The notes beneath the pieces were generated by a model. The model saw only the letters and a program-made list of their open reading frames with translations. It was not told the DNA's origin and made no database searches. A stretch of DNA of 42,087 nt, taken from assembly GCA_963813075.1 (NCBI GenBank), contig CAWEXU010000014.1, forward strand, positions 1 through 42,087. Reading direction: 5' to 3'. This stretch comes from Methanotrichaceae archaeon. Its GTDB lineage: Archaea > Halobacteriota > Methanosarcinia > Methanotrichales > Methanotrichaceae. The position numbers and the translations under genes were made by a program. Shown one piece after another: positions 16,411 through 21,087 of this stretch; the first letter of the stretch is position 1, and each line of letters opens with the position of its first letter.

Positions 16411-16851
16411 ATGGAATTATTTTTGACGAAACTTATATATATGTTACCATTCGTTATGCGCCTGGTGAGAGCTTTGAATACATCAGCCGCCGCTGATATT
16501 ACTGTCGAGCGCGATGAATTTGCATCCATACTGATGAAGGTAGGTCTCAAAAGGAACGTGGCCAAGGTCCTGACCTATCTGGCGGGAGTGACCGAGGCAA
16601 CCAGTCGGGAGATAGAGAATGGATCCGACCTGCGCCAGCCTGAGGTGAGCATTGCCATGAGGGAGATCCGCAGGCTGGACTGGATTGAGGAGAGGGATGA
16701 GAAGAATCCCGGTAAAGGTCGACCTTATCGTATCTATAAGCTGAACAGGACCCTCCCGGAGATCGTCCAGTACCTGGAGTCAGAGAATGCAAAGGAGTCG
16801 GAGAGGGTGATGAAGCAGATAGAAAAGCTCAAATCCTTGAAATCCAATTAA
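16411..16851 (+). CDS. Winged-helix transcriptional regulator (methanogen ArsR-like family); true start probably downstream, near 16465-16474
   Basis: RNVAKVLTYL, TSREIE...LRQPEVSIAM, GKGRP..IYKL. A TATA-like cttatatata at about 16432-16441 lies inside the called 5' end. Confidence 0.85.
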   Translation: MELFLTKLIYMLPFVMRLVRALNTSAAADITVERDEFASILMKVGLKRNVAKVLTYLAGVTEATSREIENGSDLRQPEVSIAMREIRRLDWIEERDEKNPGKGRPYRIYKLNRTLPEIVQYLESENAKESERVMKQIEKLKSLKSN

Positions 16852-17035: not shown

Positions 17036-18154
17036 ATGGATATGAAGTACATCATAGACGATGCAATGGGCAGAGCGGAGGCTGAGAGCAGGGTCAAGCC
17101 CTCCAGCATGATCCAGAGCGATGAAGAACTCGTATCGGTTCTGGAAGAGCTGACCACCGTCATCAGGGTTATTGGCTGCGGAGGAGGAGGCTCGAACACC
17201 ATCGATCGCCTGGCAGAATGCGGCATCCAGGGGGCGGAGCTGTTTGCCGTCAACACCGATGCTCAGCATCTTTTGCATATCAATGCCGACCGCCGTTTCC
17301 TGATCGGCAGGCGCACAACTCGGGGCCTGGGAGCAGGCAGCCTGCCTGCCATTGGGGAAGAGGCAGCGCAGGAGGATATAGATGAGATCAAAGCGGCAGT
17401 AGATGGGGCAGACATGGTCTTCGTCACCTGTGGTCTTGGCGGGGGCACAGGCACCGGAGCCTCGCCGGTAGTGGCAGAGGCCGCCCGTGAGGCGGGAGCC
17501 CTTACCATTGCCATAGTCACCCTTCCCTTCAGCGCAGAGGGGACGATCAGGATGCAGAATGCGGAAGCCGGCCTGAAGAGGCTCCGGGATGTCTCGGACA
17601 CGGTGATCGTGGTGCCCAACGATCGACTGCTTGATGTGGTTCCCAACCTTCCCCTGCAGGCGGCCTTCAAGGTGGCAGATGAGGTGCTGATGCGTTCGGT
17701 CAAGGGCATCACTGAGCTCATAACCCGTCCCGGCCTTATCAACCTGGATTTCGCCGATGTCAGAACGGTGATGACCAATGGCGGAGTGGCCATGATCGGC
17801 ATGGGCGAAGCAGAAGGAGAGGAGAAGGCACGTGACTCCGTGGTCAAGGCCCTGCGAAGCCCTCTCCTGGACGTGGACGTTTCCTGTGCAACATCCGCCC
17901 TGGTGAATGTGGTGGGTGGACCGGATATGACCATCACCGATGCGGAGACTGTGGTGGATGAGGTCTATCAGAAGATCAATCCCGATGCCCGGATAATCTG
18001 GGGGGCGCAGATAGACCAGAGCCTGGACCATACCCTGAGGACCATGCTGGTGGTCACAGGAGTCTCATCTCCACAGATACTGGGAAAGGACATGGGCAAA
18101 AGGGTGACCTCCAGACATGGCATAGACTTCCTCTCCCGCCGGGCGCGCTACTGA
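17036..18154 (+). CDS. ftsZ: Cell division protein FtsZ (FtsZ1-like N-terminus)
   Basis: [37 protein letters not shown]. Confidence 0.97.
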
Positions 18155-18299: not shown

Positions 18300-18608
18300 G
18301 TGATAATTATTCTGACCGAGAAGGTGAGCGGGGAGCTTGAGATGCTGCAGAGGCACCTGCTCATACTCAAGCATGTGGTGGAGAACGAGCCTATTGGCAT
18401 ACTCAAGCTGGCGGAAGAGACCGACATACCCAGCCACAAGGTGCGCTATTCTCTGCGAATACTGGAGCAAGAGGGTCTGATCAAGGCAACAGCTCCTGGA
18501 GCGACTACGACCCATCAGACCGCCCAGTTCCTGTTGGAGCTGGACTCAATGATCGAAGAGCTTTCCAGGAGGGCAGAGGAACTGAAAAAGATCAAGATCG
18601 CGAGGTAA
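18300..18608 (+). CDS. Small archaeal HTH protein (predicted transcriptional regulator)
   Basis: RHLLILKHVVENEPIGILKLAEET...HKVRYSLRILEQEGLI winged-HTH pattern. TAA abuts the next ATG. Confidence 0.85.
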   Translation: MIIILTEKVSGELEMLQRHLLILKHVVENEPIGILKLAEETDIPSHKVRYSLRILEQEGLIKATAPGATTTHQTAQFLLELDSMIEELSRRAEELKKIKIAR

Positions 18609-20225
18609 ATGCTCTATCTTCAGATCGCCCTTGCCCTGCAGGAGCTCTCAGAGGCAGCGCGCAGCGAGAAAGCGGCATTGATTGCCCGCATGATTTCGGA
18701 ATTGAAGCCGGAATTGCTCTGTCCGGCAGTTCGCCTCCTTTTGGGCCAGCTCTGGCCGCCCTGGGAGGTCAGAGAGATGGGGGTGGGGCCGGAGGGGCTC
18801 TCAGCCGCACTGGAGGAGATATCGGAAGGGGATATCCCTGGGCTGAGAGAGAGAACAGGGGAGATGGGGCTGGTGGCAGAGGCTGCACTGGCCAAAAAAG
18901 GGCAGCATTCGCTCGCCGTTGAGCCCCTGCAGGCCATGTCCGTCTATGAGCAGTTGAATCGAATATCTCAGATTCGGGGAAAGGACTCCGAGCAGAGGAA
19001 GAACGCCTTTCTCCGGGGCCTCTTCCAGGTGGCGGATCCACTGGAGGGGAAGTATATCGCCCGCACCGTCCTGGGAAATATGCTGGCCGGAATCGGCCCT
19101 AAGACCATGCTTTCAGCTTTTGTCCTGGCTTTTCACACCGACAAAGATCAGCTTCAAAGGGCCTATGGCCTCCTGCCGGATCCGGGTAGCATCGCCGTCA
19201 TGGCAGCCAGAGGCCAGCTGGAGAATGCCCGCATTCTGCCTGGCATCCCTCTCAAGCCCATGATGATATGCTCGGAAAGGGCATTGGACCATAAGACCGA
19301 AGAAGCGACGGAGGGAATGGCAGTCTTTCCCAAGTACCCTGCTCTCAGGGTGCAGGTCCATAAGACAGGAGCCGGAGCATTCATATTCAGCTCCCGGCTC
19401 AGGAACATCACCACCGCCCTGAACGGCCTGGCTCAGAGATTGGGGGGCATAGATGAGGAATTCATCATCGACGCCGATCTGATCGGCTTTAAGGATGGAA
19501 AGATCTGCTCCCAGTCGGATATGATCAGGCATATCAATCGCCGCCGGCTCTCCCGCCGGAGCAGCATATCGCCAGCCCTCCTGGCCTATGATCTTCTCTA
19601 TCTCTCTGGGACGGACATTGTCGGCCTGTCCTTTCTGGAGAGGAGAACCAGGCTGCAGGAGGCTTTGGGCGAGCCCAGGTCCATGCCCTTCCCGGGGATA
19701 TCGATTGTCCCACAGCTGTTCATCAAAGAGATGGACTCACTTTCTGGCCATCTGGACCGGCTGAAAGAAGAAGGCGGGGAGGGATTGATGGTGCGCAGCC
19801 TGGAAGCTGCCTACCATCCTGGCGTTTGCAGCAGTAGCGATTTTTTCATTGAAGCCGGAGCATACATATCGGCTGTGATCATCCGGGCGGAGTATGGGCG
19901 GAAAAGGGAGGATCAGATCTTCTCCCGCTTCCATATCGCTCTGCGAAATGGGGATGATCTCGTGCCAGTGGGCTGGATAGGAGGCCAGCTGGGCCAGAAG
20001 GATATCATAGCCCTAGACCGCCAGCTGAAGGCCCTGGCAAGAGAGTGGGATGAGAGGGGCGCTGCCGTCATCCCTCAGGTGGTGGTCCATCTGAGGACGG
20101 GAAAAGTTCGCAGGAGCGAGAAGGGCTATACCATAATTCGTCCCCAGATCGAACAGATCGATTTTTCCGCCTCCTGGGAGGATGCAGACGAGCTGGATAG
20201 GCTTCTTGCCGTTTGTTGCCAATGA
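18609..20225 (+). CDS. ATP-dependent DNA ligase homologue with degenerate catalytic motifs (probable pseudo-enzyme)
   Basis: DBD, adenylation and OB domains are recognisable (PLEGKYIAR, PLKPM, RVQVHK, IFSSRLRNIT, YDLLY, EGLMV). Motif I reads KYPA rather than KxDG; motifs V and VI are lost. Confidence 0.85.
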   Translation: MLYLQIALALQELSEAARSEKAALIARMISELKPELLCPAVRLLLGQLWPPWEVREMGVGPEGLSAALEEISEGDIPGLRERTGEMGLVAEAALAKKGQHSLAVEPLQAMSVYEQLNRISQIRGKDSEQRKNAFLRGLFQVADPLEGKYIARTVLGNMLAGIGPKTMLSAFVLAFHTDKDQLQRAYGLLPDPGSIAVMAARGQLENARILPGIPLKPMMICSERALDHKTEEATEGMAVFPKYPALRVQVHKTGAGAFIFSSRLRNITTALNGLAQRLGGIDEEFIIDADLIGFKDGKICSQSDMIRHINRRRLSRRSSISPALLAYDLLYLSGTDIVGLSFLERRTRLQEALGEPRSMPFPGISIVPQLFIKEMDSLSGHLDRLKEEGGEGLMVRSLEAAYHPGVCSSSDFFIEAGAYISAVIIRAEYGRKREDQIFSRFHIALRNGDDLVPVGWIGGQLGQKDIIALDRQLKALAREWDERGAAVIPQVVVHLRTGKVRRSEKGYTIIRPQIEQIDFSASWEDADELDRLLAVCCQ

Positions 20226-21087
20226 TCCTCAGAGCATTTGACCCCTGGAAGAGCGAGCTATGCACCTGTCCTGCCTAAGCTGAGCCTCAATCCCTACACC
20301 GGATGCCAGCACGGCTGCCTGTACTGCTATGCTTCATCATATATTCCCCGGTTCTCTTCCTGCCGGCCCAAGGTGGACCTTTTGAAGAGGCTGGATCGGG
20401 AGTCATCAAAAAGCAGCTACAGACTTTTTTGTGGCCATCTCCAATAGCTCTGACCCTTATCCGCCCATGGAAAAAGAGCTTAGATTGACCCGAGGGTGCC
20501 TGAGGATACTGAAGGAGAAGGGCTTTGGGGTTCAGATTGTGACCAAGTCCGATCTGGTGGCAGAAGACATCGATCTATTGGCCGGAATGAGGGCGGCGGT
20601 GGCGATTACTGTCACCACATTGAATGAGTCCCTCAGCCGCAGGCTGGAGCCGGGGGCGCCATCGCCAAAAAGAAGGCTCTCCGCCCTCAAAGAGCTCTCC
20701 GATGCAGGGATTCCCGTTTCGGCCAGAATCGATCCCATCATCCCGGGAATCAATGACCAGGGGTTCGGGGACCTGGTCTATTCTCTTTTCTCCTCCGGGG
20801 TCAGACATATAACTGCGTCCACCTATAAGGCCCGGCCAGACAACCTGAAAAGGATAAAGACCGCCTTCCCAGAGGAGGGTGAGGCACTGGAGGTCCTATT
20901 TTCCCGGGGAGGAAAAACTTCAGGCAGCCGCTATCTGCCAGAGGAGGTGAGACGGAGCATCCTGGGTGGCTTAGAGGCTCAGGTTCTGAAGGCTGGCATC
21001 ACCTTTTCCACCTGCAGGGAGGGATTTGTCTTCCCGCAGGGCACAAGCTGCGATGGCTCCCATCTGTTGCCCGTGATTGCAGACTGA
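20222..21087 (+). CDS. Radical SAM protein, spore-photoproduct-lyase-like family; frameshifts near 20275 and 20410
   Basis: MILRAFDPWKSELCTCP start (ATG overlaps the ligase TGA), LNPYTGCQHGCLYCY (CxxxCxxC), SNSSDPYPP, IVTKS, LEPGAP, RIDPIIPGIND. Confidence 0.88.

Follow-up and report, generated by a model that had tools for sequence, protein, structure and literature searches.

A conserved, ligase-shaped and probably inactive paralogue of DNA ligase in Methanotrichaceae, with a candidate PCNA-docking loop

Genomes of the archaeal family Methanotrichaceae encode a protein with the shape of an ATP-dependent DNA ligase that is very probably dead as a catalyst and yet functional. The inactivity is read from sequence. 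The fold is kept while catalytic residues are lost across orthologues, as in a conserved pseudoenzyme, and purifying selection acts on the gene in the presence of an intact ligase paralogue in the same genome. Given a dead yet functional protein, we see about an even chance that docking on the sliding clamp PCNA is its core role.

The gene lies at 18609–20225 on the forward strand of the window (the whole 42,087-nucleotide stretch analysed) where 538 codons form one unbroken frame; we call its product P0001. The original prediction described a full-length, uninterrupted ligase homologue, and an alignment over residues 1–533 together with an AlphaFold2 model bore out the three-domain fold. The domains, with approximate boundaries, are a DNA-binding domain (DBD; aa 1–205, 18609–19223, +), which is the best conserved part, a degenerate adenylation (nucleotidyltransferase) domain (aa 206–415, 19224–19853, +) and an OB-fold domain bearing an eroded motif VI (aa 416–538, 19854–20225, +). 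Pfam matches are DNA_ligase_A_N (E 1.5e-29, residues 6–171) and DNA_ligase_A_M (E 9.7e-19, residues 234–406); the Pfam OB model was unmatched in the scan of the 538-aa protein. Among solved structures the Pyrococcus furiosus ligase comes closest; its alignment spans those 533 residues (E 1.2e-59). The predicted model, computed from a 96-sequence alignment, has a mean pLDDT of 89.2 and a pTM of 0.79, and a structure search with it returned archaeal ligases as the five top matches (TM 0.71–0.74), the best being those of Thermococcales and Archaeoglobus. The architecture of an active ligase (DBD, adenylation domain and OB fold) is therefore present by domain scan, structure alignment and model. 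The score against TIGR00574 (dnl1) is 147.3 bits against a cut-off of 217.8, and all 12 NCBIfam ligase matches fall under their cut-offs. Homologues are named ‘DNA ligase’ or ‘hypothetical protein’ in databases, and the ESM Atlas names for P0001 are automatic ligase labels only. Contigs from RNA runs of four studies cover parts of the gene; this is compatible with expression, though contigs alone cannot demonstrate transcription or its level.

As the original prediction had anticipated, the genome has a separate canonical ligase, hereafter the resident ligase (G000, C17:79855-81525): 556 aa, 28% identical to P0001 and with all motifs intact. The same genome has a further ligase-domain gene (C31:240933-242738; L004, L006) that is split in two frames, possibly by an assembly error; the 282-aa gene ahead of it resembles Ku, and the two presumably form a bacterial-type end-joining pair. 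Elsewhere, in families f17 and f32, several genomes more than 90% complete gave no ligase-profile match at E 1e-30, some of them without any candidate.

Catalytic residues were counted in P0001 and 119 homologues aligned with the resident ligase, these being the best 120 of 196 matches minus the near-identical P0002. This set is biased toward genus g1; 22 deep rows are spread across genera. The motif strings quoted in the original prediction are all present in P0001, where motif I spans aa 240–247 (19326–19349, +) with its Lys242 encoded by AAG at 19332–19334, and the erosion reported there proved common to the orthologues. The residues counted, from motifs I, Ia, III, IV, V and VI, are needed for ligation. 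None of the 120 sequences keeps the Glu or the Asp of motif I, the Arg of motif Ia, the first Lys of motif V, or the first Arg, the Phe or the final Lys of motif VI. The second Lys of motif V survives in 2/120, the motif III Glu in 5/120 (P0001 has Asp) and the motif IV Lys in 6/120; no homologue has three or more of five key catalytic residues. At motif IV the predicted erosion was overstated for P0001 itself, which keeps Glu and Gly and exchanges Lys for Arg, and it holds for the family, with Glu present in 16/120. The adenylated Lys of motif I is kept in 74 of the 120 and in 3 of the 22 deep rows; of the four orthologues nearest to P0001 (65–71% identical), three have Arg there and one Leu, and across genera the position holds Lys, Arg, Leu, Val, Ala, Trp or Pro. 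The Lys is unconstrained, and because the Lys is gone in 46/120 homologues its retention in P0001 carries no weight. Within the adenylation domain, 26 of 210 positions reach 80% conservation or more across the deep rows; most of them are fold residues, joined by new invariants such as Asn310.

It is scarcely credible, given these losses, that the protein is a divergent yet active DNA ligase. P0001 does have Lys242, Arg247 and Glu391, and one genome (G051, 97% complete in 140 contigs) yielded the pseudo-ligase and a 314-aa ligase-domain protein only, a full-length standard ligase not being found in it, with an assembly gap the likely cause. Two others (G063 and G004, 70% and 76% complete) are likewise without a standard ligase, and for these assembly gaps are the simpler reading. 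Against activity stand the replacements of the Lys in all four nearest orthologues and the absence of the KxDG Asp from 120/120; P0001 falls short of an active ATP-dependent DNA ligase at motif I, at motifs III, IV and V, at motif VI and in its curated score.

A remodelled nucleotide pocket with residual or new chemistry, for example one binding or resolving 5′-adenylated DNA from abortive ligation, is a more serious proposal and still improbable. It would account for several regularities: the motif I Arg is kept in 111/120, a Tyr stands at the adenine-stacking position in 104/120, Arg replaces the motif IV Lys in 112/120, Asp328 is invariant and a new Asp411 nearly so. Of the ten AMP contacts of the Thermococcus gammatolerans ligase listed in PMC13136779, and mapped onto P0001 via alignment to the P. 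furiosus ligase, four are identical and three conservative. However, pocket positions vary freely across genera, position 242 most plainly, the acidic metal ligands are unconserved, and one lineage ends at 363 aa, ahead of motifs IV and V.

The gene is present in at least 100 of 105 Methanotrichaceae genomes among the matches listed, the type being assigned by score and identity and confirmed by sequence for 50 loci; 94 to 97 of the 100 come from the family search and three further ones, of genus g14, from the class search. It was not found in the other five of the 105, which are 56–88% complete. Beyond the family, a single-protein query of 135 other genomes of the class gave, among the matches listed (186 weaker ones lie outside these), none above the score range of ordinary ligases, and in a profile search of 251 genomes of the phylum the top out-of-family matches listed were intact ligases of family f11 (109 matches lie outside these). 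Among the best 150 representatives (5 rows longer than 700 aa omitted), the eroded ones are top-scoring or family-type sequences, and the five eroded representatives placed on the tree all fall within the pseudo-ligase clade. A highly divergent outside member would score as an ordinary ligase and could escape such searches.

The dN/dS check proposed with the original prediction showed purifying selection. Of 78 genome pairs, 30 have dS < 1.6, and in these (pairs that are not independent) whole-gene dN/dS by the Nei–Gojobori method is 0.19–0.37 for the pseudo-ligase and 0.09–0.17 for the resident ligase, and is higher for the pseudo-ligase in 30/30. Constraint is thus relaxed relative to the resident ligase, yet far from neutral. 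Open frames persist down to 31–35% identity, and 30 columns are invariant in 96 sequences. Conservation is unevenly placed: in the deep rows 50 of 205 DBD positions are at least 80% conserved, as against 0 of 123 in the OB domain, a figure that partly reflects absence of the domain. The OB domain is missing from 18/50 orthologous loci and 38/120 homologues, with at least eight changes of state on a FastTree tree, and one lineage, noted above, stops at 363 aa. The OB domain is dispensable, and we infer that the selected unit is the DBD with the shell of the adenylation domain.

Slow decay of a redundant ligase with no selected role is very improbable against this background. A dN/dS about twice that of the resident ligase, repeated OB loss, occasional copies that are broken or split (G066, G100) and the five genomes without the gene could be read that way. 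Family-wide retention contradicts it, as do a whole-gene dN/dS far below 1, the persistence of open frames, the invariant columns and the incompleteness of those five genomes. A repurposed pseudo-ligase rather than a decaying gene, as originally proposed, is backed by the separate ligase, the shared losses and the purifying selection.

On trees the pseudo-ligases form one group, separate from the resident ligases. Forcing the two together was rejected (AU p = 0.0033; 19 versus 27 rows), the tested group having been named before the IQ-TREE run and after the FastTree run, and an origin by recent duplication of the resident ligase is rejected on this basis, with long branches as a caveat. The nearest relative is instead a motif-intact second ligase of family f11, labelled Methanocellales (P0141, L173, L175, L176, L178), nearest both by profile score (355–382 bits) and on the tree; the split joining it to the pseudo-ligases has an SH-aLRT of 98 on a quick, unrooted tree. 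The two have in common a short Gln loop, an N-terminal Tyr and other signature residues. Four f11 genomes have the second ligase, and in at least two of them it coexists with a standard ligase that groups in the main lineage (L174, L179). Unlike the pseudo-ligase, the f11 protein has all six motifs intact, and its gene neighbourhood differs. Most likely the pseudo-ligase descends from a second ligase lineage, inherited or transferred, with the chemistry lost in the family ancestor.

The residue that stands out in the conserved unit is Gln99 (18903–18905), invariant in 120/120 homologues and 22/22 deep rows, in a loop (aa 97–103, 18897–18917, +) where Leu102 is kept in 119/120. The loop aligns with the QKSFF motif of the P. 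furiosus ligase, which binds PCNA (PMC6212441), and has the pattern of a PIP-DBD or QKSFF element, with Gln at +1 and a hydrophobic residue at +4 in a mid-DBD loop. Both QKSFF aromatics are missing (Phe occupies position 103 in 33/120), and PCNA binding through it would therefore be weak. A parallel is the PIP-DBD tether of human LIG1, for which PMC9767926 describes a short Gln-x-x-hydrophobic DBD loop without aromatics that docks on one PCNA subunit, binding weakly via the Gln at +1 and the hydrophobic residue at +4; there it serves an active ligase, whereas here, by analogy, it would dock a dead one. In archaeal ligase–PCNA complexes the clamp is touched by the DBD and the adenylation domain but not by the OB domain (PMC13136779, PMC6212441); conservation in the pseudo-ligase is partitioned in the same way.

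A complex prediction of the DBD with the PCNA of the same genome, encoded at G000, C30:238998-239732, gave weak support: it scored 0.57 against 0.00 for the best control, in a band where the tool errs more often than not: the pass mark was reached by 116/157 solved complexes and 2/215 mismatches, and at 0.60 or below by 18/157 and by both mismatches. At least 96% of contacts recur between runs, the partner pLDDT is 89, and the output does not give the interface. The pass may reflect likeness to complexes already solved, and the controls were without the resident ligase or a loop mutant. Conservation of Gln99 could instead serve folding or another partner.

Resident ligases of the family (L002, L056–L075) have Pro in the Gln99 column in 18/20 rows and keep the loop hydrophobics. 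Such a ligase may bind PCNA normally, leaving a division of labour between the two proteins conjectural. Most other ligases of the class in the alignment retain a Gln in the PCNA-binding loop.

DNA-contact surfaces are also partly preserved. The DBD turns at Gly60, Gly124, Ser127, Gly161 and Gly163 are kept, positions to which we assign a DNA-contact role from ligase–DNA structures, and so are Arg130 (120/120), Arg311 (117/120), Arg312 (109/120) and Arg316 (111/120). The last three lie in a basic helix after motif III (aa 302–317, 19512–19559, +, by alignment columns), in which the nick-wedge Phe is replaced by Gln and several Arg are conserved. The RRRLSRR stretch noted in the original prediction is indeed inside this helix in the adenylation domain; it is not an added segment but a remodelled counterpart of the basic helix present throughout these ligases. 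DBD position 159 is Arg in the resident ligase and Leu or Gln in 113/120 pseudo-ligases, and with this Arg lost DNA binding may be reduced. Human LIG1 presses on nick ends with F635 and F872, and mutation of these little alters nick binding (bioRxiv 10.1101/2024.11.07.622578). Equivalents of both, as judged from motif position, are kept in 0/120 homologues; given the effect of the mutations, their loss lowers nick specificity more than binding.

A PCNA-independent DNA binder, protecting nicks, gaps or ends or acting as a chromatin-like factor through the DBD and the basic helix, is accordingly a candidate, if an unlikely one. In its favour the DBD is the most conserved domain, and the turns and arginines just listed are retained. 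It fits less well with the missing nick-end Phe equivalents, with the frequent absence of the OB domain, which would close the ring, and with the net charge of the adenylation domain, 0 where the resident ligase has +8, and it leaves the invariant Gln99 unexplained. Among the roles suggested in the original prediction, the nick sensor fares worst, because the two nick-pressing phenylalanines are lost and the OB domain is absent in many members; a scaffold or regulator docked on PCNA is the better fit.

Upstream of the pseudo-ligase the window has a gene for an MreA-family regulator (16411–16851), ftsZ (17036–18154, +) and a gene for a small winged-helix (HTH) protein (18300–18608, +) whose stop codon abuts the pseudo-ligase ATG. 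Downstream a PA0069-like radical SAM gene (20222–21087, +) overlaps the pseudo-ligase stop and is frameshifted in the assembly. Contigs of three RNA runs are without one base at 20275–20276 and most relatives are unbroken, which makes the frameshift either an artefact of the assembly or a defect of the strain; in L011 and L025 the radical SAM gene is likewise split. Nearly all of 29 close loci have the order ftsZ, HTH, pseudo-ligase, radical SAM, with ftsZ upstream in 28/29 and radical SAM downstream in 28/29. Among 20 more distant loci, a radical SAM gene was picked up in 10. By-eye comparison of coordinates put the HTH gene next to the pseudo-ligase in 58/65 high-quality family genomes. The other seven are the genus g14 genomes, in which the pseudo-ligase is relocated and ftsZ and HTH stay together. 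Some 2 kb from the relocated pseudo-ligase, g14 (L053, L054, L097) has another MreA-like gene. The HTH gene is single-copy in 197/201 genomes of the class, 63–93% identical within the family, and also occurs without the pseudo-ligase; outside Methanotrichaceae its neighbours differ. No specific family name for the winged-helix protein was found in Pfam or NCBIfam, and ESM Atlas gives generic winged-helix names.

These neighbours raise the case of a protein–protein regulator, prozyme-like, of the winged-helix protein, FtsZ, the radical SAM protein or the resident ligase, which we think distinctly unlikely. The abutting HTH gene and the constant flanks in close loci speak for it. They lose force because HTH occurs across the class and has different neighbours beyond Methanotrichaceae, because g14 separates the pseudo-ligase from ftsZ–HTH and because radical SAM was detected in only half of the distant loci. 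We read the neighbourhood as inherited gene order and a weak guide to function, and gave it little weight.

The reading we prefer, tentatively and a little short of an even bet, is a PCNA-docked, DNA-contacting pseudo-ligase that would serve as placeholder or adaptor when Okazaki or repair intermediates are handed over. A dead paralogue of archaeal ATP-dependent DNA ligase would have been fixed in the family ancestor and retained since, its working unit being the DBD and the adenylation-domain shell, the two parts that touch PCNA in archaeal complexes. The Gln99-x-x-Leu102 loop would dock it on the clamp, and contact with duplex DNA would be made through the glycine turns of the DBD and through the basic helix; self-adenylation, closing round a nick and sealing would all be beyond it. 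Bound to the clamp, it would occupy a PCNA site and hold Okazaki or repair intermediates or pass them to FEN1 and the resident ligase, a receiver whose own loop has mostly lost its Gln. A stronger version, which we regard as doubtful, has ligase work split between the Gln-less resident enzyme and the dead second-lineage paralogue. The latter would be a dedicated PCNA-bound gatekeeper when Okazaki fragments or repair intermediates are passed on, and might link unfinished DNA to the ftsZ operon.

Compared with archaeal ATP-dependent DNA ligases (P. furiosus 2CFM, Thermococcus 3RR5 and 9DFA, Archaeoglobus 3GDE), the pseudo-ligase has the same three-domain fold over its whole length, a Gln at the position of the PCNA-binding loop and the DBD glycine turns. 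It differs in the family-wide erosion of motifs I, Ia, III, V and VI, in scoring under the TIGR00574 cut-off, in a dispensable OB domain and in having an intact ligase alongside. Inactivated paralogues of replication enzymes occur in the archaeal PolB2 group, and PolB2 proteins were later found to be partly active, a warning for calls made from sequence only. Other cases are the non-catalytic C-terminal Pol2 module of Pol epsilon (PMC6265327) and the trypanosome prozyme, an inactivated enzyme paralogue (PMC5201418). In each, as proposed here, a dead enzyme copy is under selection as scaffold or regulator, but the folds differ and none is a DNA ligase. Full-text searches of open-access papers turned up no description of a dead DNA ligase conserved in a cellular archaeon. 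Term searches of two reviews of archaeal replication (PMC3914693, PMC3984812) gave no passage on this paralogue, though their supplementary gene tables may list it as a second ligase.

Methanotrichaceae are major acetate-consuming methane producers, and for this near-universal gene of the family, whose product cannot be a normal ligase, the labels ‘DNA ligase’ and ‘hypothetical protein’ are both wrong. Dead polymerase modules are known replication scaffolds; were ligase work split as outlined above, the pseudo-ligase would count as a replication factor of a new type, made from a ligase shell. The family offers a natural dissection of a ligase, displaying the surfaces that are still selected once the chemistry is gone, with an intact sister lineage for comparison.
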